In this document: piece by piece, positions 47,353 through 64,000 of the stretch
How the letters are laid out: each line of letters begins with the position of its first letter
Position numbering within the stretch: position 1 is the first letter of the stretch
Assembly: GCA_016839945.1 (NCBI GenBank)
Contig: JAEOTE010000007.1
Span: forward strand, 64,001 to 128,000
DNA from: Candidatus Heimdallarchaeota archaeon
Lineage (GTDB): Archaea; Asgardarchaeota; Heimdallarchaeia; Heimdallarchaeales; Heimdallarchaeaceae
Reading direction: 5' to 3'
Length of the DNA stretch: 64,000 nt
Translations under genes and position numbers: made by a program
The notes under the pieces: generated by a model
The model's database searches: none
The model's input: the letters and a program-made list of their open reading frames with translations, nothing else
Told to the model about the DNA's origin: nothing

Positions 47353-49124
47353 GTCTTTTTATTTGATGCAATATTTCCTTCTTCATTAATTCTACCTAGT
47401 TTCTTATTTAAGAATTTAAACATTGAGGAAAGAGGAGAAAAAAGAGTAAAAATTAGTACAAAAGAACCTAGTAAAATTGTTAGAAAATAGAGAAATCCAC
47501 CATTGAGTATCAAGCCTAGATTTGGAGTTATTATCATTCCAACAATGAAATTATTTGCTACATGTAGGAAAATTGCAGCGTGTAATCCATATTTATAGAA
47601 TGCATATCCAAAAACCAATCCTGCTACAGCTGCTTGAACTATTTTCCCTTCTAACCAATTACCTGGATGATAATGGACATAACCAAAACAAAATGATGAA
47701 AATATCAGAAAAACAAAATCAAAGAATTCAAATTTTTTCCATCTTCCAGTTAAATAAAGAAGAGGATTTTTTAATTCTCTTTCAGTTAGAAATTTTGTTA
47801 ATTTCGACTTCTGCTTATTCTCTTTTCTTCTTCTTAACATTATAAATTGGACGATTTTTATACAAACAAAATATAAGCCATTGAGTACAAACAAAGGTAG
47901 TCCAAATAAGATCCATCGGTAGGTAATTTCTTCATGAAAACCAGCCCAAAATGCTCTAGACATTTCAACATAAAGCTGATCAAGATCAATAGAAATTTGT
48001 GATATAATTGGAACCCCTAGATTCATTAGAATTGTTATTAAAAGAGTTGAAAGAGCAATATTCAAGCAGAGTAAGTTTATAACCGGAATTAAATCACTCT
48101 TTTTAGCAGTGGAAATAAGTTTTGAAAATCTACTCCTTTTTGATTCAGGAATTCTTTCAACAGGGATATATCCTTCATAATTAATTTTTTGATTAAGAAT
48201 ATTGAAAGCTATGTTATCAAGTGAATCTTCTTCCAAAAATTTATCTTCTTTTGATATCTTTTCCTTTTCTTTTTTATCTTTAGGAAGATAAATTAAAAGA
48301 AATAGAATTCCAAAAAGAGCTAAAGACATAAGCGATTGAGCAAGTTTCCAGTCAACTATTATTGATTTAGGTAATTCTATAAATTTGAAGAAATCCTGCC
48401 TAAAACCTGTAGAAGGATTATAACTATATTCAAAATTTGGGAAAGTAAAAATTAAAGTTTCAACTCTACTTGATGCAGGAATAGATGGATAGATAATAAA
48501 GACAAGTAGATTGGCTAGTAATAGAGATAAGCCAATGAATAACATCATATTATTCCACTTGTTTTTAATGGAATATTCAACTTGTCTTACAGCTGATTCT
48601 ATACCAAGTTCTGGTTTGTCTGGGATTAAAACCTCTTTATAAAAAAGGAGACCAAGGTGTTTCTCTATCCCGGAATACAGGAATATTCCAACAAGTATAC
48701 TAAATAGCGATAATTGAATTAATTCTAAGAGGGTGATAGAGATATTTGTCAACACAGATATTGTATTGAGAGAGGAGAAATAAATAACTAGAGAGTATGC
48801 ACCTACTCCAAGATAGAAGGGTAAAAAGAAAAGGAATACACTCTTCAACGGTTGATCTTTCCTATCGATATCATTCTTAACAAACCATCTTCTAAAGAGC
48901 CAACCATAAATTATAAATGTTATAATTGCAAGAAAATATAACAAAATTGTGTAATAGGATATTGATGGAAAGTATGCTTTTAGTACAACATTTAAAGTAG
49001 TTAAAACACTAACAATTGTTACTATAATTAAAGAATGAAATAAAAAATTCTGAAATCTCATTAGTACCAATTGTCCTTTTTTAAGTAACGTCTCAATTCT
49101 TATCAAGTTATAGGTATTTATCAA
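47349..49124 (-). CDS. CPBP (Rce1/Abi-type) intramembrane glutamic protease with N-terminal multi-TM extension
   Basis: EEITYR, FGYVH and HVANN motifs (EExxxR, FxxxH, HxxxN); start uncertain. Confidence 0.85.
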   Translation of the reverse strand: MINTYNLIRIETLLKKGQLVLMRFQNFLFHSLIIVTIVSVLTTLNVVLKAYFPSISYYTILLYFLAIITFIIYGWLFRRWFVKNDIDRKDQPLKSVFLFFLPFYLGVGAYSLVIYFSSLNTISVLTNISITLLELIQLSLFSILVGIFLYSGIEKHLGLLFYKEVLIPDKPELGIESAVRQVEYSIKNKWNNMMLFIGLSLLLANLLVFIIYPSIPASSRVETLIFTFPNFEYSYNPSTGFRQDFFKFIELPKSIIVDWKLAQSLMSLALFGILFLLIYLPKDKKEKEKISKEDKFLEEDSLDNIAFNILNQKINYEGYIPVERIPESKRSRFSKLISTAKKSDLIPVINLLCLNIALSTLLITILMNLGVPIISQISIDLDQLYVEMSRAFWAGFHEEITYRWILFGLPLFVLNGLYFVCIKIVQFIMLRRRKENKQKSKLTKFLTERELKNPLLYLTGRWKKFEFFDFVFLIFSSFCFGYVHYHPGNWLEGKIVQAAVAGLVFGYAFYKYGLHAAIFLHVANNFIVGMIITPNLGLILNGGFLYFLTILLGSFVLIFTLFSPLSSMFKFLNKKLGRINEEGNIASNKKT

Positions 49125-49227
49125 TTTTTATTTTTCTCCTCAAACGGAAAAACTTTTAAAAGTTCTTCATGCAATTTAACAATACTCAATTTACGTACAA
49201 TTGATAACTGGTTTACAGGTGAAAAAA

Positions 49228-49644
49228 ATGAGTAAAAAAGAAACAGATGAAAAAGTAGACGCAAAAGAAGAAGTCGAAGAAGAAGTCGAAGAAGAAGTCA
49301 AAGAAGAAGTCAAAGAAGAAAAAAAAGCGACTAAAAAGGCAGCTCCTAGGAAAAAAGAAGAAAGCCAAATAATCTATATCGGAAAGAAAAATACTATTAG
49401 CTATGTGCTTGTAGCAGTAACAATATTAAACAAGAGTGATACTTGCGCTATCCAGGCAAGAGGAAGACAAATTTCAAAAGCCGTAGATGTCGCAGAAATA
49501 ACTCGAAGAAAATTCCTACAAGATATGGTTGAAGTATCAAAGGTTGAAATAGGTTCCGAAGAGCTCATGAGTGATAGGGAAGGGGAAGAGCCAACTACTA
49601 AAACTGTGTCTACAGTAGAAATAGTCCTGAAGAAAAAGAAATAG
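49228..49644 (+). CDS. albA: DNA/RNA-binding protein Alba with acidic N-terminal extension
   Basis: IYIGKK..SYV, ARGRQISKAVDVAEI, VSTVEIVL; start moved to ATG 49228. Confidence 0.92.
   Translation: MSKKETDEKVDAKEEVEEEVEEEVKEEVKEEKKATKKAAPRKKEESQIIYIGKKNTISYVLVAVTILNKSDTCAIQARGRQISKAVDVAEITRRKFLQDMVEVSKVEIGSEELMSDREGEEPTTKTVSTVEIVLKKKK
49264..49320 (+). repeat. 12-bp coding tandem repeat (RAAGAAGAAGTC, about 4.7 copies)
   Basis: Encodes [KE]EEV repeats in the Alba N-terminus. Confidence 0.9.
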
Positions 49645-49713
49645 TTCTTTAACTTGAGTAAAAAAACTTTTTCTTTAATTTTTTACATTTTATACTTTAT
49701 AATGTATATTATA

Positions 49714-51123
49714 TTAGATGAAATCTCCAGTCTCAATTTTCTGAGGAAGATAGAAATTTGTTATATACTGTGGATCTCTAGCATTTAGTGCTTGTATTTC
49801 TGCTTTGTAACCACTTGAAATTAAGATTTGTAGTTGTTCTTTCCATCGGGGTTTTCTTTTAACAAATTCCTCTTCTAACATAAGTTTCGATCTATGAATA
49901 TCCTTGGCTGTCATTTTCAGTAAAGTACTTTGAGGAATATCAAAACCGCTTTCTTGGGACAAATCACTAGGGAGTAGACCTAACCATTTGATATTAGGTA
50001 CTGCAAGATGACTCGATTCAAAACTCAAAGCTTTACTTCCAACACTATAGACTCTCATGATTTCAAAACCATATGGATCAGCGTCCATAAGTGAGAATAT
50101 AGGAAGGTTCAGCTCATCATTAATCTTCTTTAGGAACTGCCTTGTTGCCACATCAGGTTGTCCTTTAGCTGTAATTAAAATACTTGGAACATAATCATAG
50201 AAGTGATCTTCAGCTAATCTATTGAAAACCGCGTCTTTTTCTATAACTAGAACCATTTCCGCATCTGTATCTAAGTCTTCTATATCATCAATATTAGGAG
50301 ATATTGCTTTTCCTGCACCAATAGCTCTACAATCAATAAAATCTCCCTTTTCTTTGAAACTAATTCTTCCAACAACAATACCTTTTGATGATGCGCTAAT
50401 ATTAAGTGAAGTACGAGTAACTTGAAGCATTGCACTTAAATCTTCTAATAGTGAATCTGAAACTGTTTGTTTTTCAAATGAATTTACATCCATGTAAAAA
50501 ACATCTCTTTTTGTGCTGTGAATATCCCTAGAAAGTAAATCATGAATTAATCTCATTATTATCGTCATTTGTTCAACTGAACTTACAGAAGCTAAGTTTC
50601 GAAATTGACGTTCTATCATTTGTCTTCCAATTAGAACCAATTCTTGTTCTTCATCAAAACCTACATTCGTTCCACTCCTTGAAGGGATGTAGAAGGAAGC
50701 TTCAGATGGGTTGGATATGGCTTGCTGAATGAAATCAAGAGAATATTCAACTAACAGATTATTAGTCTCTTCAGATGTTTTTGTTTCTACGTGAGTTACT
50801 CCATAAGGCATGAAAAATTCTGTTCTATCAACAAGATCTCTTCTTACATCTTGTACTTTCTGAAGAGAGATATTATTTTTGACGCTCACACGCATGGCAT
50901 CTTTCTGAAGAGGATATCTTGAAAGTTTTCTAGAAGGTTCTAATCTATGCCATTTCTTCCCACTTCGAAGGAAAAGAATGTAAGTTCCTCTTTTTATATT
51001 AAAAGCTTCTTTCGTCCAATTATACATTTCTCTAACTAATATTTCTTTATCAAAACTAACTTGTTTTTCTATTGCTGGTAAGATTGTTGAATTTCTAAAA
51101 ATAAAATGATAATCAGGAGACAT
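49714..51123 (-). CDS. top6A: DNA topoisomerase VI subunit A with N-terminal ubiquitin-like extension
   Basis: TKRDVFY (catalytic Tyr), Toprim IEKDA and DADPYG, KGQPD..TR, KAEIQAL. Confidence 0.95.
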   Translation of the reverse strand: MSPDYHFIFRNSTILPAIEKQVSFDKEILVREMYNWTKEAFNIKRGTYILFLRSGKKWHRLEPSRKLSRYPLQKDAMRVSVKNNISLQKVQDVRRDLVDRTEFFMPYGVTHVETKTSEETNNLLVEYSLDFIQQAISNPSEASFYIPSRSGTNVGFDEEQELVLIGRQMIERQFRNLASVSSVEQMTIIMRLIHDLLSRDIHSTKRDVFYMDVNSFEKQTVSDSLLEDLSAMLQVTRTSLNISASSKGIVVGRISFKEKGDFIDCRAIGAGKAISPNIDDIEDLDTDAEMVLVIEKDAVFNRLAEDHFYDYVPSILITAKGQPDVATRQFLKKINDELNLPIFSLMDADPYGFEIMRVYSVGSKALSFESSHLAVPNIKWLGLLPSDLSQESGFDIPQSTLLKMTAKDIHRSKLMLEEEFVKRKPRWKEQLQILISSGYKAEIQALNARDPQYITNFYLPQKIETGDFI

Positions 51124-51124
51124 T

Positions 51125-54100
51125 TTATTTTACCTCCTTATTTTTGTTTTGAGATGTTGATTTAGAAGTATTGCTCTTCGAGTTTTTTTGAGAAACATCA
51201 AGCAATGTTGTTTGTTTTCCTTTTGTTGCTTTAGGTATAGTTGCAGTTTGTTTAATTACTACTTTTGGCTTAGTTACTGTCTTAGATTTAGTTGCAGTTG
51301 ATGATTTTGAAGGTGTTTTTGCAGCTGTTTTAACAGGTTTCTTCTTCTTTGGCTTGAGTTTTGCCTTGGGTAATCTATTCTTAAGATTTTTTATTGAAAG
51401 ATAGCTAAGGTTTGTTTTCTCATCCATGTTTGTTGATGGATAGACAACAAACTCCTTGATGGTTTTGACTCCCAACACTGTTATTTGATTTCTCGCTTCT
51501 GACTCCACTTCAAGATTTCTTAATGGTTTTTCTAAGAACTCTTTTAGGTCTTTTACACCTTGTTCTTCAAGCAGAGGATTCTTTACTATACTAGGTTCTG
51601 GAAATACTAATTGTTGTATTGTTTTTATCCCAGCTTTGTTCAGCTGAGTTATTAATTCTTCACTCAGGAAAGGATGAGTTTTTCTTATTAAAACAACCTC
51701 TTTTTCTGCATCCTTTATGGAATCCTGTGTAAAGTTTGAGAAGTAAGTTCTCAATTGACTTACCTGAATCCCAGTTATTTTGGAAAGACTTTGTGCAGTT
51801 TGTGCAAAAATATCCCAAAGTGTATGAATATTGTTCTTATGAAGTTCAGCTACACTTTGTGGATTGTCACTAATTATATCACTTAGATAATAAAATGGTA
51901 AATCTAGATTTCGTTTTATCCTTGAAACCTGAATACTATTCAACTTTGAGGTTTTCACAATCAGTTCTTCGGAAACATTCAAATGTGCTATAGTTGTATA
52001 TCCCGATTTGATTAACAGTTTTCTAATATTAGCATCAAATAATCCTATTTTCTTGACACTGTAACTCTTACTCTTCAATGTTTCATTGACTAACTGGCTA
52101 TTCATCTTATCTTGAAGAGACTTTACAATTGCTTGCTCTTGTTCAGTTAGACTTACGCTTATCGCTTTTCTTATATCTGGAATTGAAACAAAATCAATAA
52201 CTTGGATTATACCTTCGTTATGGAATTTTTCCAAAAGTCTTGGTTGATTAATGAATATAAGCATTGGAGCTCTTAACTTCTCGATAATTTTCACAATTTC
52301 AGAAGAATAGTCTTTAGGATCTTTGCTTTCAATATATTCAAGTAAAATTCCTATAGTTCGAATATCTTCTTTGCGTAGGAATGATAGTATTTCTTTGTCC
52401 TTTATGAACGAACTAAGTCTCTTCTGTTCAGAAGACATCATCCTTTCCACTCTTGTAGAGGAAAGTTTAGGTAGAAGAGATGTACATGTTGTTTCATATT
52501 CTATTTCACTTAATGATTTACAGTAAATTAAGAAATCAAAAACAGTCTGAAGCTTCATCTTATTCATTAAGTCATAAATCTTCTTATTTTCTCTAACAGG
52601 TGGAAGAGAAAAAAGATCAGTTTCTACCATGTTCTTTAATGAATCTGAGGTCTTCCAAACACTGCTTGTTTTTGATTTAGCTTGTTTATTGAATACAAGC
52701 GCTTCTTCAACTGATAGGATAAAACCTTTCTTAAGGATGGAAATATTGCTTCCTGAAAGTAAATCTTTAGGTATGCTTGTTAGGCTTCCTTCCAACTCCT
52801 TCAAAGTAATTAATGAGATATTCCTTAGATTTCTTAGGAAAACTGGATCAGGGATTTGGCTCTTAATCTTATTATAATCCTCTAACAATAATTCGTCTAT
52901 ACTCCTATAGGGAAGTTTTGAGATGATATCAACTTTCAACCTGTTTGGTTGAAGTAGGATTATTGTTCTTTTTAGATGATATGAGAGTTCATTATACTTC
53001 TTGCTTATCTTAGAATGAAGCTTTGAAATTGTTTTATTATAGAGTTCTTTTTCATGTTTTTGCAATAACAAAAGGTATTCTATTGAGGAATCTGACATAT
53101 CAAGTTTTTGATCTTTTGATTCAAGATTTAATACTTGCATCAGAGTTATACCTTTATTGAAAATAGAATTAATGGCATTTTGAATATCTTCTCTTTGTTT
53201 TTTGGTTACACTTATCTTATTGAGATTCATTGATAAATATGCTAAATCTAGTAGATTGAGAGAATATTCAGTTTTTGATACTAAATCCTTAAGCACTAAC
53301 TTTTCAAATACTTTTATTTTATCAAGTAAATAATTAGGAATCTTATCTAATGATACTTCTTCATCAAAAAGATCGGAGTAATACTTGATACTTCTCTGAT
53401 TTAGAATCGCTATATCCTTTGCAGAGAATATCTTACTTTCTTTTATCACTGGATGGCTTCCAAAATTACTGCTTGTTAAAGAGTATCTTATTTTTTCAAC
53501 TTCTGCTTGTTTTAATAAGAGAATTGAAGCAAGTTCTTTGTTAGTTAATAGATAAAATTCTTCTAAATTCTTAACATAGTTCTGTATGTTTTTCCAACTC
53601 TTAATTGTAACATCAGGAAGGAGTAAAAGCTCAATGGGTAGTTTTAGAATTCTCTTTATTTTGTTTGCCAGAGATTTGGAAAATGTGAACGTTTCTTTGT
53701 TTAAAGCAAAAATCAAATCATCCATTGTTGAATAATGTTTCTGAATTTCTTTCTTTGTTTCAGAATCGAAAATTTTCACTCTGCTTAACTGTACTTTCTT
53801 CTTAACATCTGTTTCAATTTTCTTGTAAGTTAGTGAAGAGGTAATTTCTAGGATTTTATCTTTCAATTTAGCAGGGGACAATATCATCCAAGAAGAGATG
53901 GGTTTTATTATGAGATCTCCTATAGTGTAAATACTCTTATCTTCTAAAATCTGTAGATCTGCCTTTGTTAGAACAGCGAGTGAGGAAATGGGTTTGGAGA
54001 ATGTTTGTTCAATTTTGAGACCCAAATCCGATAGTGAATCCTCTTTTTGATATAGTGTTGTTATTAAATCCAATATACTCTTAATTTTTGTTGTTTTTGT

Positions 54101-57100
54101 TTTCTTTGTGAACAATTCTTTAACATCGCTTTCCTCTATGTATTGATCTTTGGATATATAATTAGCTATTATACCTTCTTTTGATGCTAAGTAGTCTCCT
54201 AAGAATCCAACAATATTTGCTTTTTCTGTAGCATCACTTGTTTTCATTAAATCTCGAAAAGTTACTATTCCAGAATCTAAATAGTTGCTTTTTATTTCAT
54301 TTAGATTCTTTTGATTGATTTTTGGATAATAAAGGACAGAAGTGTTATAGACTTCTTCTGCTTTATTTTGAATTTGTTTAATCTTTTTCTCTGAAACTAA
54401 CCAGTCGTAAATTGTGTTATTCATTAAATCCTCGAGATTGTAAATTCCTATAGATTTCAGATAATTTCTGTCTTGAGCTGATAGGAAGAAAATTTCTTTC
54501 AAGTTTTGTTCTGCAACGGAATCTATTCGTTGAACAATCGAATCTACTTTGAAATTCTTAATAGTATTTTGAATAGTTGTGACTTTTACTTTTGAAGTAG
54601 TTGCAATAACTTTAGGAGATAGATAGAAGATATCTGCAATAATATTAACACCTGCAGATTTCATTTTCTCTAAATCTTTAGGATCAAAATCTAGAAAGCG
54701 TAGATTCGCCAATAAATATGGAGTAATTTTCTTGAAAATGACTTCATCATCTTTGAATGTAGGTGATGTCAATATTGATTTGTATGAAGAATATCCTTTG
54801 TTTGATAAATCAACTTCTAATTCGGATAATGGTTCTTTAAATCCCTCTTCTTTTATACCTTTTATTAACGAGAGAGAGAGAATAATTTCATCTTGAATAT
54901 TCTTTGGTAATTTATTAAGGAATATCAAATGCTCAATGATGGTTGTGAACCCTTTTTCATAACAATAATCTAGTGACTCTTTTGTTATTGAGGATAAATA
55001 GCTGATATTATTGGATAATTGACTTCTGTAGTCATCAACTTCTTTTCCTTTTACTTTACTATTAGTTACGATATGACTAACAGGAACGAAGAAAAGATGC
55101 TCAACTGTTGTTATACCTATTTGAAGGAGAGAAGTTGCTGTCTTCTTTGGTAATCCCAACATTTCAATTGAGATACCAAACTTATCAATTTTCTTCAGGT
55201 TTTTAACAAGATAATCTGGTTCTTCTTTCTGTTTTGTAATAAGCTTACTAAAACTTGCTGGCCAATTCTTCTGAGGTATAGCTAACAAATCGTTATATGT
55301 TGTTATATTACTATTTAACAAGTCTTTAATTTCTGTATCTTTCAGCTTTAATGATTTTCCAATTAACGTTATTGGGGTTAATAAAATAGAGATGAGTTTT
55401 ACAAGATTTTTCTTTTCCTCAATAGGTATTGGTATTAAATCAAGATTAAGCTCTGATGCTTGAACTAGAGATACACAACCATACTCGGAAAGAATGGTTT
55501 TGGTTTCCTTTGTTATTTCAGAGAATAGGCTTAAATCAAGACCTATTAATTTTACATTTTCTTCTAATGATTTAATATCAATAGTTGTTTTAATGGTCCT
55601 TATTTTTTCTTCTGCAACATTGATTAGTTTGGCTAAGAGTGGAGCTGGAATGAGAAGGAATTGGTAAAGGTTTCGAATGCCATTGTGTTTTAGTTTTTCT
55701 ATTTGTTTGGAAGTTAGGTTACCTATATAGGATAATGGAATACTTTTTAGTGATAGAAGTAGAGGGCAAACTTCTGAGAGTAATTCTCTTTTTTCTACAA
55801 TCTTACTATCTAGTGATAAAAGCTCATCTAGATAGAGTATTTTTTCATCCTTTAATCTCTTAATAAGAGCTGAATCTGAAACAATCTTAATATCAGAGAG
55901 TTTGATCGCCCATTCTGGAGGGCTTATCTGTATAACTATACTATTAAGAACCTCTACTATTTTAGAATGCAGATCATGATTTTCCTCTTTCTCTGATAAA
56001 CATAATAATCCTGATACAATGTTGTTACAATCGCTTTGAGACAAAATATTCAATTGTGCAATGTTAAGCTCAACGTTAGAAATGAGCCATGAAATTGGCT
56101 TAAACATATTTGAAGTGATTATTCTGATTAATGATTTCTCGATATCTCCAAAATCAAAAACTGGGTGAGGTATGAAATCTACTAATAATAGAGCACTTGA
56201 TAATCCATATTTCATAAATTGTTCTTCTGCTTTATTTGGAAAGGAGAGAGCATGATCAATATAGTATGAAAATGTTTCTGACATTCTTGTACTCAAATTA
56301 AATTCTCTTTGGAATATTCTTATTTGCTTTGCTACAGCTTTTGGTATACCAATTATTGTGTTGACATTTGTTGAGAGAAGTTCAATAACATGTTTAATAC
56401 CATTATTCCATAGAACTCCTTTAGAAGAAATATCAAAACCTGGTAATGCAAGAACATTCAAACACAGAAAGCTAACTAATTGTTCAATAAATGCTATGCT
56501 TGAGATTTTTTCTATTCTTTCAGATTCTGATAGTTGTAGCAGTGCATCTGGGATAAAACCAAATATATCTTCTACAGCTTTTTTTGTTGGATCGAATTCA
56601 AGAGATTTAAGCAAGTTGATTATAGGTTCGTTAAGGGTTAATGTTCTACCTTTTGAAAGTGTGAAAGTGCCTTTCCTAGCTGAACTTATGGTTTTTGGAA
56701 TTGAACCATTCAAGGCTCGTTTCAAATCCTTATCTGAACAATTAAAGAGATCAATCAACCTCAGAATTCCTTCACTAGTTAAGTTTAGTTTCTCCTCTGA
56801 AGATAACTCTGAAATTCGGTAAATTGAGATGTGACACGCGTTTAGAAAATCTCTCATATAGTCCCCAGAGACACTCAATGTAGGATATGCTTGATAATTT
56901 GAACTATACAAATCTTGAACATGTATTTTTCCAGATTTAAGTAGAGAATTAATTTTTCCCTTTGATAAAACAAAGAAGTTTACTAACTCGACACCTTTTC
57001 GTTTAACTTCTTTCATCAAATTAGAAGGAGTGATTTTGTCCAAGTATGTTTGCACTTTTTTCTCTGACATGTTTAGTAAAAGAGAGATTGTAGAAACATC

Positions 57101-60100
57101 CTCTGTAATAAAGGAGAGGATATCACCTACACCTGAATATATAAGCTTCATTACATGATGATTATCTAAACCAATAAAAGCTACAGAAGAGCGATATAGT
57201 TGCACTTCTCTAAAGATATCTAATCGAACTAGAGCAGGACGAGATTCTCTTATTTCTTCCATTCTTGATATAAAGTCTTGTACGGAGTTGATACCTATAT
57301 CTAGTAGTTTTTCGAGATAATCTTCCTCAATTGAAGGACAAACAGTAAGAGGTATAGCAGAACTAATTCTTCTTTCTGATAACTCATCGAATGATATGAG
57401 ATCTAGTGCATGAAACTCTTTGTATATTGGATTTTGCGTAATTGTAAATAACTCATCTCTATTCAATAAAGCAAGATCTATAACGGAATTTATTTCATGA
57501 TACTCCAGACGTTTAATTTCATCATAAGATAGAAAGCCTATGAATCGGATTGAGCCAGATAAGAGTTCTTTTGCTTTCTTATATACGTCAACTTGAAGTA
57601 TTTCAGAGATACCTAACAAAGATGCTGAATAGAAGAGAGTTTCAATATCTGTAATCCCTAAATCTTTTAGCTCATCTAGTTTTTTCTCTGGTATTAGTTC
57701 TGATGGTCTTATTAAGTGAGATTGTGATAAACGGAAGGACACAATATCGGTGTAGGTTAGACCTTCTTTTATTTCTCTTATTTGTTTCTGGGAAAAACCA
57801 GAGATTTCTGAGAGTTGCTTTTCTGGAAGTGAGAAGAAATCAATCAATGTATTAATTGAAGATTTGCTCAACTTGAGAGTAAGTTCTCTTGGAAGCCCCA
57901 TGGAAGCTATTGGGATTGCTAATTCCATTATTAGTTTATTAAGAGAGTCAGTCTCCATTAAACTTGAGAAGAAAGGCGAGAGGGCAGAATGTTCCTCCAG
58001 ATTTATTTCAAATACATCACCAATTATGACGTTTTTGTATTCTTCTCTACGAGCTTTTCTGATCTTAGTGAAGAAGGGTGTGATTCTAAGAGGTAACTCT
58101 AAAATTGATCGAATTAATGTTAGATTATAATGATCTGTAAGGTATTGTTTGTCTTTACCAGTTAAGTCTTTTATAACTTTTGGATCAGTAATAACATCTG
58201 ATAACGTTTTATTTTCTACTTCTTGAATAACCCTGTTGAAATATGATGAATTATATACAGATGCAGGTAGTTTAGCGAAGTAATGGAAAGCTTGCATTAC
58301 TATTATTTTTGAAGAATATGTAGAAACAACTCTGTAAAGCACTGGGTCTTTAAGATCTATATCAGGAATGAAAAGTAATTGGTAAACATAATGGATATCA
58401 TTTTGTTCTAAAACCTCTAATGAAAATTCTGAAATCTCTGTAAAAATCTTCAAAGGTAAGGTGAGGTATTTCTTAACAGCTGATATCTTTATCCACAATT
58501 CTGGATTAGAGAAATAATACTGTTCTTCTATAGTATAGAATATTTCTTGAATTGTTTGGAATCTTTCAAAGTGGAATATTGAATCTTTACTCAATAATCT
58601 TTGTTCAAGTTTATCAAACAATTGAGTTTCAAAAGCAAAAATACCCTTTTGTTCATACATTGCTTGAATGCTTGAGGATGTCAGAGAAGTTATTATACTT
58701 TCAGCATCCTTTGGAGAGATTTTTATGAGTTTGCTTAGTTTTTGAGATGATGCAAGAATAAACTCAGATATTGTTTTTATTCCATTTTCTCTTAGAATTT
58801 CTGTTTGACTAAATGAGAGCGATGGTAAGAAATAAACAGGTAGTGAGAAGTAGCCAAATATATCTGAAAAGTCTAAAGCACTTTTTATTGTTTCAAATCT
58901 TTCATCTGGTATTCCTGTTTTTTCCATCAGAACTTCAGGAGAGGATAACATAAAACCAAGTAAAGTCCTTATTTTTGCTTTTTCTAATAGTTCTATGATT
59001 TCAGGATCTAGCATATCAGAAATATGATCCAAAGATAGATTCAAGATAGCTTTAAAGGATTCAATAACATCCCATGGTAAAATTTCCTCATTCCACTTAT
59101 CTTTTGAAGTTGAGAAGTATAAATCCTCAATTGTCATTATGTTATTTTCATCCAACACTCTGACAATTCTAGGTTCTAATATTCCTAATTCAGAAAGGTC
59201 AATTCCAGTATCACTTATTCTAACATTCCTTTGAAGAAGTATAGCTTCTTCATTATCTACTCCTAAGAAAGAAGCAATATCTTCAGATTTACTTACTAGT
59301 AAATCAATAATTTTAGTGATTCCATTATTTCTCAAAATGTTGAGTTGTTGGGTTGTCAAGGTTCTAGTTTGGACCTCTTCTATTTCTTGTGTTTCTTCGG
59401 ATTCTTCAACTTGAACAGTTTTCTTGATGATTTTCTCCCATGTTACTAGTGTTAAAGGAGACCTCAGTAGCTTTCTGAACTTATCAATGACATTCCAGTT
59501 AACTACTGCTGAAGAAAAAGTGAGAGGGTGGGCTAAGTAAAAAATCTTATCCACTGTATCATAGCCAGAAAGTATTAGTGATACAATTTCGTGTGAAGAA
59601 AATCTCTCTGATTCTTCGTATTCAAATGATATTAGAGAAGTATATTTATTTCCTGATTTTTCAAAGAAATGAGTACCTTTTTTCTCAATTGCGAAAACAT
59701 CTATTAATTGCTGGGTTTCTTGAGTAGACCTTACTAAAGTAGCTGCTAACTCATCAATAGTATATTCAAATAATTGATGAATAGCTGTTATCCCTCTGTT
59801 CCTTAATTTATCAAAATCTTCAAGAGTTAACTTACTTATTCTAGAAATTGGTAAACCTAGAGTTTGAACGAATTCATCATATTCACTAATTAGTAAGATT
59901 TCCTTACTAAATTGATCAGTTTCTGAAAATGTTCTATTCTTGATATTATTGTGAAGCTCAATAACAAGTTTTCTTTCTTTAGCAGTGTTTAACTCAGATT
60001 CAATAATTTCTGGAATAAGATCTAAAAATTGTCTTACTGTTACAATATTTCTTAATTTCAAACGAAGAAGAGCTTCTGTAAGCAGAGATAAATCCTTGAA

Positions 60101-63100
60101 TTTGTCTGGATATAGTTGAGTAAGTTCGATTATTTCCATATTCGCTAATTGATTTAAATGTCGAATATTTTCCCAAAAACCTGTATTCAATGTTGGTTTT
60201 TCAGTAGGGTAAACACTGTATAGATCTTGGATTGTTAGGTTATGTTTTTCTATGAATTGAACTAATCTTGGATATTGGTTACTAAGTAAACTCAAACTCT
60301 TTCCAAATTCTGTTCTATTCTTTTTTACTTCTTCTTCACTTATTGATTGTTTTAAATCCTTTACCCTTTCTTCTGATATGTTTAATACATCAGATAAATC
60401 AGAATTAGACCAGATTGAGAACCTGCCAATACAGTTTATTCCTATTTCTTGCAATAAATATGATTGCCTTCTTAATGAAGGAAATGCAAAAGATATAGGA
60501 GTTAATAAAAGATTTGCAGTTTCTAGATATGTTCTTTTTGCTTCTCCTGTTAGATTGTAAGCTTCAGGAGGATTGTAAAAAATTTCCTCAATAGATACTA
60601 TTCCTGCAGTTTTTAGTGTTTCTTGATGTTTTATCCATTTGAATATTGGAGTTCCAAGACTCTTTTTTATTCTCTCAACATCTTTTTTTCTCAAACCTAA
60701 CTTTCTTAATTGAGGTGATGGAAATGCTAAGAATGCAGTAGTTGTAAAAATTTGAAGATTAACTAATTGTTGCTCAATATCCTTTGGTATTACTTTAACG
60801 TGAGACAAATCTTTATCTTTCTTTGACTCTCGAATGTGAGATATTAATTTGTGTTTTGATTCCTTGAGTAGTAGATCACCTATCAATTTGTAATCTCTTT
60901 TCAAAATTGATGCTGTGGGTAAAGAGATTAGGTTAGTAAGAGTCTTTATACCTTTTTGAGATAGAACCTTTATGGCTTCTGTTTCCTCTTCCCTAAGTAT
61001 TTCATCAGAAATTAACTCAAATTTAGATAGTTCAATAGATTCTGAGGATTTGACTAGAGTATCTAGAAAGGTATTGTACAAATTCCTCTCTAGTTCCTTT
61101 ATTACAACAAGATCATCTAGTTTAGCATTAATTAAATCCTCAATTGTTTTTATTTTTCTTCTATGAAAAGCGTTCTTAGTATAAGCATCTGTCCAATCAG
61201 GTTTCATCTTAGTTACATTGGTCTTAGAAAATGTAGGAAACTTATCACATAGTTGAGAAAAAATATTTTGCAGGTAATTAACTAAAACAGCTGTTACTTC
61301 TGTTTGATAGTTTACTGAATATGGTAATTTTGTTTGGTAAAGAAATTCTTCAATGGTTGTATCTTGAGATATCAAACCTTTAGAATTATCTTTTAGATAC
61401 TCAAAAGTTGGAAATAGTGTATCTATTTTTATGTCATCAACTTTGGTGAGTGAAGCCAGAAGTTGTTTTCTTTTTTCTGATTTAGCTTTACTTGTTTTAT
61501 CCTTGGTTAGTAAGTACTGATGAAGGAGCTGTTCTTTTTTATTTTCGAAAAGTTTCTCTAGTAATCCAGTAACTGTTTGTAGTTTGTTAAAATCTGTAGC
61601 GAAATAATGGTAACTGTTTTGTATCCATCTTCGATATAAAGCCTCTTTTAATGTGATTATAGTTTTTTCATTTTGAGTAAATCTTCTTTCTATAGTTCTA
61701 CTTACAAAGAGTTTAGGATCAAAACTAGGGCTCATTCCCTCTCTATCAAGTTCAGATATCGTTCTAAGTTTGATATTGTAGATATCTTGTTTAGTAAGTT
61801 CTAACAGTTTTGCTATATTATCAGATGGTGTTATGAGAAAATCAGAAATAGATTCAATATTGTTTGTTCGAAGAACTGATTGAATTCTTGATGGACACCA
61901 TACATTAGCACCAAATAATCTTCTTCCCAAAGGCATGAAGAGCTTAACTTTTTTTGTTGCACCATGAGCCAAGGCCGCAGCAATTCTGTCAGTTTCTAAC
62001 CTAAAATCAGTATAATTAACTGCTTCATCTTCTAAAATTTTTGTTAGATTATCTATGATTATTGGTGCAGATCTTACAAAGCGTGATAATCTTGCATGCT
62101 CTCTTCTTCTTCTTTTAGCTCTGCTTAAAAATGTCTTTAGTCTTCTCCCCAACTGCATTAATGCTAATCGTATCTCTTCCTCAATCTCAGGAACAATGGA
62201 TATATATTCTTTACTTGTTTCTGGAAAAGGAATCTTAGTACTTACTACTGATACAGCTACAGCTAGAGGATCAGATTGCCTTGTTAACCCATATTCATTC
62301 CATCTTATTGAAGAAACAGTATGAGAAATAACATCGTTCCCTGCTCCAAATATGAGTGGGATACGATTTGCGTACCTATAAATTATTTTATTATCTTGAA
62401 CGGTAGCTCCCTTTACTTGCGAAGCTTCATTTACTCCCCCTCCATAACCTATTGCTACTTCTACAACAAAGGGATGACCAGAATAAGCTTTAGGAGCTCT
62501 TGTTACAGCTTCTACAAATTTAGGTTCCAGTTCTTTTTCTAAACCCCTCCTTAATCTATTCGATCCTAATGGTGATAAAGCAGTACCTTTTGGATCATCA
62601 AACTGAAATATTCTATCTCTTTTTCTTTTAACATCTTTCGCTTCTTGGTAAGCTTTTACAAAACCTTCATGAACTATTCTTCTGATTTCGTGAGAGGTAA
62701 TATCTTTTGGAGATTTGTTTGGATCAATCTCTAAAAGTTGGAAGAAACCTTCTGCTATTTCCTCATTTACTCCCATGAATTGTGTTGCTAGAAATTGCTT
62801 GAGTGTTTTGCTTTGACTTGCAGTTAATTCTGCCTTGAACTGAGTAATATCACACCCCCATGGATGAATTTTAACTGGTTGAGGAGGGGGAGGCATATCA
62901 TCTACAACACTAAGAAAGTCCAGATCTTCATATTCACCTTCTTTATCTGCAGGAACTTTGATTTTAAAACTGGAATAAGGGGTAATAATTGCTAATTGCT
63001 TAAAATATTCTTTTACGCTATTCTTAGCAAGCCTCCATGCTCCTGTAAAAGTGATTGATATTTCTGTTCCAGGTTCTTCAAGATAGTTTGGATCTCCTGG

Positions 63101-63637
63101 TAGGTACTCACGTTGTTCCATGATTACAGGTTCGTTCTTTTCAAGATTTATCATTAAATGAAGCTCATGGGTAATATCATCCATAAAGTATCTGCTTCGT
63201 ATTTTTGCAGGTAAGTCAACAGATGACATAGAGTATAGCAAACACATTTTTGCTCCTAAACCAAAACGACCTCGTGTTTGAATTACTCCGTATTTTGTTC
63301 CAGTCAATACTCTCCCAAAAAGTTCAGCAATCTGGTGTCCAGGAACTCCTATCCCATTATCTTTACAGGTTAGTTGTAGAAAATCTAGATGCTTTTCTAA
63401 TTTTCTGTATTGCGTAACATCAAGCAATTCATTTATTTCTCTGCTGGAAAGTTTTCTTAAGTCTAAATCAATAACAGGATTAATTCCTCTTTTTTCTGCT
63501 GCATCTAGTCCATTCTCAACTAACTCTCTGATACTTGTGAAAACAGCTCTCATTGAATTACCAAAACCAGCAATGGCTCTGTTTTCATTAAAGAAAGCAG
63601 CAGCTGACATTTTTTTTGTAACTGTATCTTCTGACAC
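51125..63637 (-). CDS. top6B: Giant DNA topoisomerase VI subunit B fused to a long HhH-like repeat array
   Basis: GHKL motifs ELVENGLDA, DNGIG, TRGRFGLG, GTEI; transducer RYANRIPL, STKIPF; then about 3600 extra aa in one open frame; GTG start. Confidence 0.93.
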   Translation of the reverse strand: MSEDTVTKKMSAAAFFNENRAIAGFGNSMRAVFTSIRELVENGLDAAEKRGINPVIDLDLRKLSSREINELLDVTQYRKLEKHLDFLQLTCKDNGIGVPGHQIAELFGRVLTGTKYGVIQTRGRFGLGAKMCLLYSMSSVDLPAKIRSRYFMDDITHELHLMINLEKNEPVIMEQREYLPGDPNYLEEPGTEISITFTGAWRLAKNSVKEYFKQLAIITPYSSFKIKVPADKEGEYEDLDFLSVVDDMPPPPQPVKIHPWGCDITQFKAELTASQSKTLKQFLATQFMGVNEEIAEGFFQLLEIDPNKSPKDITSHEIRRIVHEGFVKAYQEAKDVKRKRDRIFQFDDPKGTALSPLGSNRLRRGLEKELEPKFVEAVTRAPKAYSGHPFVVEVAIGYGGGVNEASQVKGATVQDNKIIYRYANRIPLIFGAGNDVISHTVSSIRWNEYGLTRQSDPLAVAVSVVSTKIPFPETSKEYISIVPEIEEEIRLALMQLGRRLKTFLSRAKRRRREHARLSRFVRSAPIIIDNLTKILEDEAVNYTDFRLETDRIAAALAHGATKKVKLFMPLGRRLFGANVWCPSRIQSVLRTNNIESISDFLITPSDNIAKLLELTKQDIYNIKLRTISELDREGMSPSFDPKLFVSRTIERRFTQNEKTIITLKEALYRRWIQNSYHYFATDFNKLQTVTGLLEKLFENKKEQLLHQYLLTKDKTSKAKSEKRKQLLASLTKVDDIKIDTLFPTFEYLKDNSKGLISQDTTIEEFLYQTKLPYSVNYQTEVTAVLVNYLQNIFSQLCDKFPTFSKTNVTKMKPDWTDAYTKNAFHRRKIKTIEDLINAKLDDLVVIKELERNLYNTFLDTLVKSSESIELSKFELISDEILREEETEAIKVLSQKGIKTLTNLISLPTASILKRDYKLIGDLLLKESKHKLISHIRESKKDKDLSHVKVIPKDIEQQLVNLQIFTTTAFLAFPSPQLRKLGLRKKDVERIKKSLGTPIFKWIKHQETLKTAGIVSIEEIFYNPPEAYNLTGEAKRTYLETANLLLTPISFAFPSLRRQSYLLQEIGINCIGRFSIWSNSDLSDVLNISEERVKDLKQSISEEEVKKNRTEFGKSLSLLSNQYPRLVQFIEKHNLTIQDLYSVYPTEKPTLNTGFWENIRHLNQLANMEIIELTQLYPDKFKDLSLLTEALLRLKLRNIVTVRQFLDLIPEIIESELNTAKERKLVIELHNNIKNRTFSETDQFSKEILLISEYDEFVQTLGLPISRISKLTLEDFDKLRNRGITAIHQLFEYTIDELAATLVRSTQETQQLIDVFAIEKKGTHFFEKSGNKYTSLISFEYEESERFSSHEIVSLILSGYDTVDKIFYLAHPLTFSSAVVNWNVIDKFRKLLRSPLTLVTWEKIIKKTVQVEESEETQEIEEVQTRTLTTQQLNILRNNGITKIIDLLVSKSEDIASFLGVDNEEAILLQRNVRISDTGIDLSELGILEPRIVRVLDENNIMTIEDLYFSTSKDKWNEEILPWDVIESFKAILNLSLDHISDMLDPEIIELLEKAKIRTLLGFMLSSPEVLMEKTGIPDERFETIKSALDFSDIFGYFSLPVYFLPSLSFSQTEILRENGIKTISEFILASSQKLSKLIKISPKDAESIITSLTSSSIQAMYEQKGIFAFETQLFDKLEQRLLSKDSIFHFERFQTIQEIFYTIEEQYYFSNPELWIKISAVKKYLTLPLKIFTEISEFSLEVLEQNDIHYVYQLLFIPDIDLKDPVLYRVVSTYSSKIIVMQAFHYFAKLPASVYNSSYFNRVIQEVENKTLSDVITDPKVIKDLTGKDKQYLTDHYNLTLIRSILELPLRITPFFTKIRKARREEYKNVIIGDVFEINLEEHSALSPFFSSLMETDSLNKLIMELAIPIASMGLPRELTLKLSKSSINTLIDFFSLPEKQLSEISGFSQKQIREIKEGLTYTDIVSFRLSQSHLIRPSELIPEKKLDELKDLGITDIETLFYSASLLGISEILQVDVYKKAKELLSGSIRFIGFLSYDEIKRLEYHEINSVIDLALLNRDELFTITQNPIYKEFHALDLISFDELSERRISSAIPLTVCPSIEEDYLEKLLDIGINSVQDFISRMEEIRESRPALVRLDIFREVQLYRSSVAFIGLDNHHVMKLIYSGVGDILSFITEDVSTISLLLNMSEKKVQTYLDKITPSNLMKEVKRKGVELVNFFVLSKGKINSLLKSGKIHVQDLYSSNYQAYPTLSVSGDYMRDFLNACHISIYRISELSSEEKLNLTSEGILRLIDLFNCSDKDLKRALNGSIPKTISSARKGTFTLSKGRTLTLNEPIINLLKSLEFDPTKKAVEDIFGFIPDALLQLSESERIEKISSIAFIEQLVSFLCLNVLALPGFDISSKGVLWNNGIKHVIELLSTNVNTIIGIPKAVAKQIRIFQREFNLSTRMSETFSYYIDHALSFPNKAEEQFMKYGLSSALLLVDFIPHPVFDFGDIEKSLIRIITSNMFKPISWLISNVELNIAQLNILSQSDCNNIVSGLLCLSEKEENHDLHSKIVEVLNSIVIQISPPEWAIKLSDIKIVSDSALIKRLKDEKILYLDELLSLDSKIVEKRELLSEVCPLLLSLKSIPLSYIGNLTSKQIEKLKHNGIRNLYQFLLIPAPLLAKLINVAEEKIRTIKTTIDIKSLEENVKLIGLDLSLFSEITKETKTILSEYGCVSLVQASELNLDLIPIPIEEKKNLVKLISILLTPITLIGKSLKLKDTEIKDLLNSNITTYNDLLAIPQKNWPASFSKLITKQKEEPDYLVKNLKKIDKFGISIEMLGLPKKTATSLLQIGITTVEHLFFVPVSHIVTNSKVKGKEVDDYRSQLSNNISYLSSITKESLDYCYEKGFTTIIEHLIFLNKLPKNIQDEIILSLSLIKGIKEEGFKEPLSELEVDLSNKGYSSYKSILTSPTFKDDEVIFKKITPYLLANLRFLDFDPKDLEKMKSAGVNIIADIFYLSPKVIATTSKVKVTTIQNTIKNFKVDSIVQRIDSVAEQNLKEIFFLSAQDRNYLKSIGIYNLEDLMNNTIYDWLVSEKKIKQIQNKAEEVYNTSVLYYPKINQKNLNEIKSNYLDSGIVTFRDLMKTSDATEKANIVGFLGDYLASKEGIIANYISKDQYIEESDVKELFTKKTKTTKIKSILDLITTLYQKEDSLSDLGLKIEQTFSKPISSLAVLTKADLQILEDKSIYTIGDLIIKPISSWMILSPAKLKDKILEITSSLTYKKIETDVKKKVQLSRVKIFDSETKKEIQKHYSTMDDLIFALNKETFTFSKSLANKIKRILKLPIELLLLPDVTIKSWKNIQNYVKNLEEFYLLTNKELASILLLKQAEVEKIRYSLTSSNFGSHPVIKESKIFSAKDIAILNQRSIKYYSDLFDEEVSLDKIPNYLLDKIKVFEKLVLKDLVSKTEYSLNLLDLAYLSMNLNKISVTKKQREDIQNAINSIFNKGITLMQVLNLESKDQKLDMSDSSIEYLLLLQKHEKELYNKTISKLHSKISKKYNELSYHLKRTIILLQPNRLKVDIISKLPYRSIDELLLEDYNKIKSQIPDPVFLRNLRNISLITLKELEGSLTSIPKDLLSGSNISILKKGFILSVEEALVFNKQAKSKTSSVWKTSDSLKNMVETDLFSLPPVRENKKIYDLMNKMKLQTVFDFLIYCKSLSEIEYETTCTSLLPKLSSTRVERMMSSEQKRLSSFIKDKEILSFLRKEDIRTIGILLEYIESKDPKDYSSEIVKIIEKLRAPMLIFINQPRLLEKFHNEGIIQVIDFVSIPDIRKAISVSLTEQEQAIVKSLQDKMNSQLVNETLKSKSYSVKKIGLFDANIRKLLIKSGYTTIAHLNVSEELIVKTSKLNSIQVSRIKRNLDLPFYYLSDIISDNPQSVAELHKNNIHTLWDIFAQTAQSLSKITGIQVSQLRTYFSNFTQDSIKDAEKEVVLIRKTHPFLSEELITQLNKAGIKTIQQLVFPEPSIVKNPLLEEQGVKDLKEFLEKPLRNLEVESEARNQITVLGVKTIKEFVVYPSTNMDEKTNLSYLSIKNLKNRLPKAKLKPKKKKPVKTAAKTPSKSSTATKSKTVTKPKVVIKQTATIPKATKGKQTTLLDVSQKNSKSNTSKSTSQNKNKEVK

Positions 63638-63801
63638 GATTGCTACACCTTACATTAAACCTTAAATTAGTTTCTACTATTTTATGATATATGTTATTTA
63701 TAACTAGTATGTTTATATTAAACGTATTAGTATTTAAAGATAAATTTTACCGGCAAAAACTCTGAAAAGGAGGAAAGAGGTAAAAAGAAAAATAGAAAAA
63801 G

Positions 63802-64000
63802 TTATTTCTTTTTCAATTTAAATTCTGGAGAAGTTCTATGAAGTACAACTGAAGTTATAGCAAAACCTATTGTAACAAAGAATAATGCACCAAAAGCTCC
63901 TATAGTTCTTGAAGTATCAACTTTATCTATTTCATCCAAGAATTGACCTTTTATGTCATCATAATATACTTCAGTAGCTATAGTTCTGTCATACTGCCAG
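63802..64000 (-). CDS. 3' end of a membrane-anchored protein (partial; runs off the window)
   Basis: Own translation ...WQYDRTIATEVYYDDIKGQFLDEIDKVDTSRTIGAFGALFFVTIGFAITSVVLHRTSPEFKLKKK*. Confidence 0.7.
   Translation of the reverse strand, partial: WQYDRTIATEVYYDDIKGQFLDEIDKVDTSRTIGAFGALFFVTIGFAITSVVLHRTSPEFKLKKK

Follow-up and report, generated by a model that had tools for sequence, protein, structure and literature searches.

The locus described here encodes a type IIB DNA topoisomerase, topoisomerase VI (Topo VI), with elaborations on both subunits: the B subunit runs on for 3,625 residues past its catalytic core, as an array of about 40 small domains of the helix-hairpin-helix (HhH), or more exactly (HhH)2, type closed by a basic tail, and the A subunit opens with a ubiquitin-like domain. 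It lies in a window of 64,000 nucleotides (nt), the whole stretch of DNA that was analysed, which covers positions 64,001 to 128,000 of the forward strand of contig JAEOTE010000007.1 (assembly GCA_016839945.1) of a Candidatus Heimdallarchaeota archaeon; coordinates below are counted from the first letter of the window. Both genes are on the minus strand: top6B (51125..63637; 4,170 amino acids (aa) when started at its GTG, codon 10 being an in-frame ATG), as delimited by the list of open reading frames (ORFs) and by family models, and top6A (49714..51123; 469 aa), which encodes the Spo11-type A subunit. The host genome (3.0 Mb in 186 contigs, 88% complete) contains one Top6B match and one Top6A match, and the locus thus encodes the single Topo VI found in it. 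A first-pass annotation, made from the letters of the window, had suggested that this might be a second copy; that suggestion falls, since a search of the same 88%-complete genome for another, canonical top6AB pair found none.

Both catalytic cores are intact, as the alignment of their residues with those of known enzymes shows. The canonical core of Top6B (residues 1-545, 62003..63637, minus strand), made up of GHKL ATPase, H2TH and transducer domains, passes both NCBIfam equivalog models (NF003218, 450.9 bits against a cut-off of 274; TIGR01052, 388.3 against 380.7) and matches PF09239 with 184 bits. Residues 9-533 align to S. shibatae Top6B (2zbk_B, E-value 1e-84), and this alignment shows that the N-box ELVEN, the G1 motif DNGIG, the G2 motif TRGRFGLG and the switch lysine in STKIPF are all kept. 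Top6A matches PF21180 (Toprim, 201.7 bits) and PF04406 (5Y-CAP, 74.1 bits) and aligns to 2zbk_A with an E-value of 4.9e-57, the homology to the S. shibatae protein beginning only at residue 111; R206, the catalytic Y210 (in RDVFY), E295, D347 and D349 are invariant in all 18 aligned Asgard sequences. Its score against the NCBIfam equivalog model (258.5, cut-off 531) is below threshold, as expected for a divergent Asgard form. The first-pass annotation had stated that both subunits retain their catalytic motifs and that both carry added domains, and both statements are borne out, although for 3,625 extra residues on Top6B "domain" is far too small a word. Canonical archaeal Topo VI (2zbk; 2q2e from M. 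mazei) likewise consists of B and A subunits encoded in a B-A operon, with GHKL/H2TH/transducer and 5Y-CAP/Toprim cores and all catalytic residues, but its B subunit has ~470-620 aa and its A subunit ~370-390 aa, as against 4,170 and 469 here, and it is without the ~40 (HhH)2 units and basic tail on B and without the ubiquitin-like domain and helix on A. According to a published survey, M. mazei Top6B ends instead in an Ig-like C-terminal domain (CTD) (PMC9348778).

The two genes form a translationally coupled operon. The TAA stop codon of top6B (51125-51127) is followed by 1 nt and then by the ATG of top6A, and the end of top6B, which reads GGAGGTAAAATAA, contains a Shine-Dalgarno-like GGAGGT 9 nt upstream of that ATG; it is this junction, with the ribosome-binding sequence inside top6B, that marks the pair as an operon. 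The B-A gene order is kept in all 18 loci from which both genes were recovered. Upstream of the top6B GTG there are AT-rich TATA-like boxes and an AGGTG, and an Rfam scan of positions 48000-64000 returned zero family matches. The layout had been read correctly from the start: the ORF list and direct reading agree with a top6B end at 51125, a top6A start at 51123, a 1-nt gap between them and a convergent Alba gene 69 bp away, and the operon then proposed from that gap is confirmed by the Shine-Dalgarno sequence that accompanies it.

What is the B extension made of? Three Pfam families match it above their cut-offs, PF21794 (RAD51D_N, 95.2 bits), PF14520 (HHH_5, 43.3 bits) and PF03118 (RNA_pol_A_CTD, 39.2 bits), and a hidden Markov model, refined by repeated searches of Top6B itself, settles on a unit of 60 residues with 35 significant copies between residues 573 and 4091 (51365..61921, minus strand, a span that includes the unmatched stretches between units). 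The unit consensus, ...L..NGIkTIeDL....s.kdLskI.Gls.k....lk..L, fits the (HhH)2 type found in the CTD of the RNA polymerase (RNAP) alpha subunit (alpha-CTD) and in the RAD51 N-domain. A sliding profile-profile scan with hhalign, for which the family alignment was used, gives 35 units at a probability of at least 85% and six more at 45-75%. The stretches that match no unit (residues 628-800, 1100-1170, 1780-1903, 2450-2585, 3135-3210 and 3447-3560) may be divergent units or spacers. Compared with the Protein Data Bank (PDB), the unit profile finds RNAP alpha-CTD (1doq, E-value 3.3e-6) and also the HhH thumb of Pol IV/iota and the N-domains of RAD51/DMC1. The array is followed by a Lys/Thr/Pro-rich tail recognised by its composition (residues 4096-4170, 51128..51352, minus strand), and the last 75 residues have a net charge of +19 and an isoelectric point (pI) of 10.8.

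No other protein of the host genome matches the repeat unit at an E-value below 1e-3, and when 1.84 billion representative proteins were searched by profile, all those checked with about ten or more matched stretches were proteins with a Top6B core or fragments matching the array. The same search field holds five stand-alone metagenomic proteins (P0059, P0063, P0064, P0065 and P0067) of 528-1,024 aa with 4-9 tandem alpha-CTD-like domains (PF03118 up to 268 bits), some such proteins also matching SAM-like or UBA domains; they resemble the array in having 4-9 copies of its type of repeat unit and differ from it in that they have no topoisomerase core and that none of those checked exceeds about nine units.

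A frame of this size might be an artefact, that is, a misassembly, a run-on annotation or a decaying gene, a view to which we give practically no weight. Tandem Repeats Finder detects no DNA-level tandem repeat in top6B, the sole repeat of the locus being in the tail of the neighbouring Alba gene; the units must thus be old, and there is nothing in the gene that an assembly could collapse or expand. An open frame of 12.5 kb at 31% G+C is beyond chance, the stop-free architecture recurs in more than 60 genomes, two of them single-contig, and the orthologues are colinear.

How widespread is the long form? Genomes were grouped into families (f1-f7 and f20) and genera (g1, g10, g12 and g13), the host belonging to f1 and g1, and f3 bearing the name Kariarchaeaceae in NCBI records. 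Among 83 genomes of the class, the transducer-bearing frames measure 4,140-4,305 aa in f1, 4,244 aa in f2, ~3,470-3,590 aa in f3, at least 3,570 aa in f4 and 2,312-2,346 aa in f5, while those of f6 are broken by contig ends and f7 holds two forms, of ~1,110-1,155 and ~500 aa. Among 200 genomes across the phylum, the other lineages listed have a Top6B of 400-760 aa, with the exception of f20 (~2,290 aa). A comparison of 20 loci shows the array to be colinear from end to end, with 42-67% identity over 4,170 aa within f1 and 28% with f2, which argues for purifying selection on it; its proximal ~2,200 residues are colinear with the 2,300-aa forms as well. Within f1, identity amounts to 79% in the core, 50-64% in the proximal array, 25-38% in the distal array and 28% in the tail. 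The 1,115-aa Top6B of f7 carries more canonical HhH motifs (HHH_5 at 90.7 bits; IMS_HHH), whose counterparts in sister lineages with a short Top6B were not found.

A quick maximum-likelihood tree of 38 Top6B cores (Asgard sequences alone, midpoint root, support given solely by the Shimodaira-Hasegawa-like approximate likelihood ratio test, SH-aLRT) places the array-bearing Top6Bs in one clade with a support of 99. The long f7 form branches off first, then f20 and f5/f6, then f2/f3/f4/f1, so that protein length rises in nested fashion from 1,115 to ~2,300, ~3,500 and ~4,200 aa. The simplest reading is that the array arose once in the Heimdallarchaeia lineage and grew stepwise, its units then being retained position by position within the family. 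The lysine-rich tail, which gives the last 80 aa a charge of +14 to +40, occurs in f1-f4 and is missing in f5 and f7, whose 2,300-aa and 1,115-aa proteins end in an ordinary HhH unit; the tail was thus added with the last expansion of the array. Within it a motif, [KR]Q.TL[LMD][DE][MVI] (KQTTLLDV in the host), is conserved in g1, g10 and g13 while its flanks are not. It starts like a PIP box (QxxL) but has no aromatic pair, and by its sequence is a candidate partner-binding linear motif.

Family f7 is alone in keeping a second, short Topo VI pair, which belongs to a different paralogue clade. Two complete operons are seen there (L030:1577-4232 and L032:8995-11637), with an HhH-bearing B of ~1,115 aa and an A of ~402 aa, and a short B of ~500 aa and an A of ~376 aa. 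In the tree the short f7 copies fall far from the array clade, beside other Asgard copies of ~497 aa, and since they group with copies from other families, the Topo VI paralogues of Asgard archaea form no fewer than two lines. Family f11 (L050:139-4503 and L053:352-4502) has a third Top6B-like gene, of 648-706 aa, so divergent that it scores only ~65 bits to the Top6B core. Behind it comes a Top6A-like ORF of 729-746 aa or more, which reaches the edge of the examined locus. Here too a type IIB pair has been elaborated, but outside the HhH clade and with no relation to it.

The elaboration of the A subunit is of a different kind. AlphaFold2 models of Top6A, one built from the 18-sequence alignment (predicted local distance difference test score, pLDDT, 77) and one of the N-terminal 110 residues alone (pLDDT 82), agree in their DSSP assignments: strands at residues 5-11 and 18-24, a helix at 30-41, strands at 48-54, 57-60 and 77-83, and a further helix at 87-103. 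The order beta-beta-alpha-beta-beta-beta is that of ubiquitin-like proteins, and the N-terminal domain, residues 1-86 (50866..51123, minus strand), is assigned to this beta-grasp fold by model, Foldseek and profile alike. Nearly all of the PDB matches listed by Foldseek are ubiquitin, ubiquitin variants or ubiquitin-like domains (E-values ~1e-4, probability 1.00, template modelling score by target 0.7-0.86). Independently, the sequence profile of the domain matches mono-ubiquitin with an E-value of 0.002-0.03, the lower values obtained against poly-ubiquitin being due to summed repeats. Three of the 17 aligned N-domains match PF00240 (ubiquitin; best E-value 2.2e-7) and two match Rad60-SLD. 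The host copy is not among the three, its only Pfam match being to FERM_f0, a ubiquitin-like F0 domain (E-value 0.004), and a sequence-word search with the region recovers genus-level 469-aa Top6A proteins only.

Could this domain be a conjugatable modifier? That possibility was ruled out, as the domain is N-terminal and has no free C-terminal di-glycine; no di-glycine follows strand 77-83, and the chain continues through the helix into the core of Top6A, of which the ubiquitin-like domain is an integral part. Integral domains of this fold are found in eukaryotic proteins such as USP15/USP11, tubulin cofactor E and UBL4A, which share with Top6A a beta-grasp fold inside a larger protein and the lack of a conjugation motif; the difference is that here an archaeal topoisomerase has the domain, on the subunit that cleaves DNA. 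The ubiquitin-like domain of the GHKL ATPase SMCHD1 is reportedly needed to stabilise the N-terminal ATPase module of that protein. The helix at residues 87-103 (50815..50865, minus strand; DSSP of both models) stands before the canonical N-terminus of Top6A, ahead of the part that binds the B transducer, and may be the counterpart of an extra N-terminal helix described in the TopoVIA of Asgard archaea and eukaryotes (PMC9665070). Two free ubiquitin-family ORFs are present in the host genome (G000:C129:7-195 and G000:C69:28398-28556; PF00240 at 50.1 and 28.3 bits). Ubiquitin-type proteins of the host could be the source of the Top6A domain or of machinery interacting with it.

Do the two elaborations belong together? 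Top6A measures 463-472 aa wherever the partner Top6B has at least 2,289 aa, 401-403 aa beside the 1,115-aa Top6B, with the helix region present and the ubiquitin-like domain absent, and 375-378 aa beside the 500-aa Top6B. A profile of the ubiquitin-like domain finds exactly one match per genome, in a frame of ~465-489 aa, in 28 of 30 genomes of f1, the single genome of f2, all 12 of f3, all three of f4, 20 of 22 of f5 and one of two of f6, and none in the 12 genomes of f7. The added parts of the two subunits do therefore occur together among relatives, from f1 to f6 as against none in f7, and the "co-evolved" enzyme of the first-pass annotation stands as far as this strict association of the ubiquitin-like Top6A with Top6B arrays of ~2,300 aa or more is concerned. 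The word itself claims more than the data give: because the genomes surveyed are relatives, there was probably a single gain of domain and long array, never lost, and not repeated co-evolution, and the pattern is no statistical proof that the two evolved in concert.

How might the added parts work? The solved Topo VI structures (2zbk, 2q2e) show the transducer of B, at its C-terminal end, in contact with the N-terminal segment of the A subunit, close to the DNA gate. As the extension takes over where the transducer stops, the array would begin next to the DNA gate of the A subunit, and the ubiquitin-like domain would sit at the same place, at the A-B junction, where it would most likely act as a docking or stabilising module. 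The proximal units 573-628 and 802-858 are conserved, the latter with an invariant basic NAFHRRK hairpin, and they would be placed for contact with the DNA flanking the gate segment. Because the first array units hold residues invariant across f1 and f2, this hairpin among them, their sequences make them the best candidates for direct DNA contact. Beyond them, the long near-neutral array and the basic tail might hold the enzyme on DNA or chromatin through many weak contacts, which would raise its local concentration and processivity or let it reach a second or distant duplex. That array and tail together form a DNA or chromatin tether for Topo VI is the reading that we favour, at about an even chance, by analogy with topoisomerase V, whose 12 (HhH)2 domains wrap DNA, and in view of the nearest profile relatives of the unit (RNAP alpha-CTD, the HhH of Y-family polymerases and the N-domains of RAD51), which are all DNA-binding modules.

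Several observations weigh against this tether. The array is not basic, with a net charge of 0 and a pI of 7.4 in the host and a pI of 5.1-8.9 among orthologues, neutral to acidic in most of them. The units keep their first hairpin (G-I-x-T), but the second hairpin of most of them has lost its glycine, and the arginine of the RpoA "265 determinant" is not conserved. About 30% of the extension fits no unit model, the distal half of the array evolves fast (25-38% identity within the family), the fold class of the units is known from sequence profiles alone, and the joint occurrence of long array and ubiquitin-like domain probably counts as one evolutionary event. The array may instead be mainly a protein scaffold or long spacer, in which 40 to 55 small helical domains would keep the catalytic core at a distance from an anchor, be it the basic tail or partners bound along the array, and recruit factors, the ubiquitin-like domain being one docking element. 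In favour of this, strongly basic sequence is confined to the tail, most second hairpins have degenerated, RpoA alpha-CTD and SAM-like folds also serve as protein-interaction modules (SAM_EPH and SAM_TNK cross-match in related proteins), and the conserved motif of the tail in g1, g10 and g13 would suit a partner. Yet a scaffold has no known partner here, the repeat model matches no other protein of the host, the closest solved relatives of the unit bind DNA, and the ancestral short array had canonical HhH motifs. It is the neutral-to-acidic charge, the degenerate second hairpins and the fast distal half that keep us from rating the tether above an even chance and that make the scaffold a possible, though rather doubtful, explanation.

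The analogy with topoisomerase V of Methanopyrus kandleri is one of design. There too a topoisomerase domain is followed by a tandem (HhH)2 array, of 12 domains, and according to one account these domains wrap DNA and seemingly act as a processivity factor (PMC9489208). Membership of topoisomerase V was considered for the protein described here and rejected, as its catalytic part is that of Topo VI; the two enzymes are unrelated in catalytic domain and in mechanism (type IC against type IIB), the array is three to four times longer and consists of alpha-CTD-like units, and no topoisomerase V chain was matched when the PDB was searched with the unit profile. The likeness is thus a functional analogy only. 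Topoisomerase V also offers a precedent for an array with an enzymatic DNA-repair activity, since three of its (HhH)2 domains are apurinic/apyrimidinic (AP) lyase sites (PMC4838376), and the units here are rich in lysine, ~10% of their residues. That the array adds an AP lyase of this sort to Topo VI is nevertheless very unlikely: the unit profile does not recover topoisomerase V by sequence from the PDB, and the alignment of units contains no conserved lysine column and indeed no invariant column at all.

A bolder possibility goes beyond the tether. In Heimdallarchaeia, Topo VI might also be a structural chromosome protein, with two arrays of ~100 nm or more per A2B2 enzyme and basic H1-like tails bridging or coating DNA, and with the ubiquitin-like domain coupling it to the Asgard ubiquitin/proteasome system or to Cdc48. 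We consider this unlikely; if true, it would be the archaeal counterpart of the chromosome scaffold formed by eukaryotic topoisomerase II or of an axis-tethered Spo11.

The first-pass annotation had also drawn the neighbouring Alba gene into the system. The gene (49228..49644, plus strand; 138 aa from its ATG) lies in an ORF that opens with a TTG at 49201 (49201-49644, plus strand, a 147-aa frame of which ATG 49228 is the first), and the spacer that separates it from the convergent top6A (49645..49713, 69 bp, by direct reading) is AT-rich with T runs on both strands. Its product is an Alba protein (PF01918, 57.4 bits against a cut-off of 25; NF003088, 87.4, just short of 90), with the core at residues 57-119 of the 147-aa frame, and it is the sole Alba match in the host genome. 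The low-complexity N-terminal tail noticed at the outset is real, as is the convergent position: the tail is E/K-rich, both acidic and basic, of the form (KEEV)n, and stems from 4.8 copies of the 12-nt coding tandem repeat AAAGAAGAAGTC (49264..49320, plus strand; Tandem Repeats Finder). Its length varies within g1 and it is missing from the neighbouring Alba of g10; it is a recent, genus-specific coding microsatellite.

Might tailed Alba, Top6A and Top6B nevertheless be a co-evolved unit of chromosome architecture, with Alba working alongside the elaborated enzyme? Alba stands next to top6A, in the same position and orientation, in the 12 g1 genomes with a spanning contig (the host included) and in one g10 genome, and most g1 genomes have two Albas, a canonical short one elsewhere and a distinct paralogue with a longer frame that lies on the top6B contig, ~12.7 kb away from the transducer. 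However, no such adjacency was found in g12, g13, f2-f5, f7 or f20, and the g13 Alba lies ~105 kb away in two complete genomes. The Kariarchaeaceae (f3), in spite of their giant Top6B and ubiquitin-like Top6A, have no Alba match in any of 12 genomes, and because Alba and top6A converge they are not co-transcribed. Adjacency limited to two genera, a family without Alba and a variable tail show that Alba is a local neighbour in two genera and not a conserved part of the system; it is probably a housekeeping chromatin gene. The three-gene module and its synteny, as first proposed, do not hold up, and we regard a working partnership of Alba with the enzyme as highly improbable.

In NCBI records, proteins of 4,188 and 3,567 aa bear just the name "DNA topoisomerase VI subunit B". 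Brinkmeier et al. 2022 (PMC9665070) and Villain et al. 2022 (PMC9348778) describe, for Asgard archaea, a TopoVIA with one more helix and a TopoVIB extended at its C-terminus, and such extensions are reported from archaea that encode gyrase. The enzyme reported here agrees with those descriptions in its A helix and B extension, and the host has a GyrA-family gene; it differs in that the descriptions are of one helix and one globular CTD, with neither array nor ubiquitin-like domain. Brinkmeier et al., the sole paper searched for the term, make no mention of HhH in the text searched. The GyrA-family gene lies at a contig start (G000:C62:3-1304, PF00521, 446 bits), and the host probably has a gyrase beside its giant Topo VI, matching the published link between gyrase and C-terminal extensions of Top6B. 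No literature description of the array or of the ubiquitin-like elaboration was found in a coverage mostly without subscription journals, so that an earlier account may exist. In a published marker-tree table (PMC12395588), eukaryotic Top6A is separated from Njordarchaeales by one node and from Hodarchaeales by five.

Spo11 and plant Topo VI both descend from archaeal Topo VI, and Heimdallarchaeia belong to the known archaea that stand nearest to eukaryotes. To our knowledge, a B subunit of seven to eight times the canonical length would be by far the largest topoisomerase subunit, and earlier descriptions treat the design of a catalytic domain plus (HhH)2 array as exclusive to topoisomerase V. 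The long B form is fixed across the whole class, where it has grown stepwise, and with it a type IIB enzyme has recreated that design. For its part, the presence of a ubiquitin fold in the Spo11 homologue of a lineage with ubiquitin genes suggests a regulatory or assembly link. Both elaborations bear on how the management of DNA at the scale of the chromosome evolved before eukaryotes.

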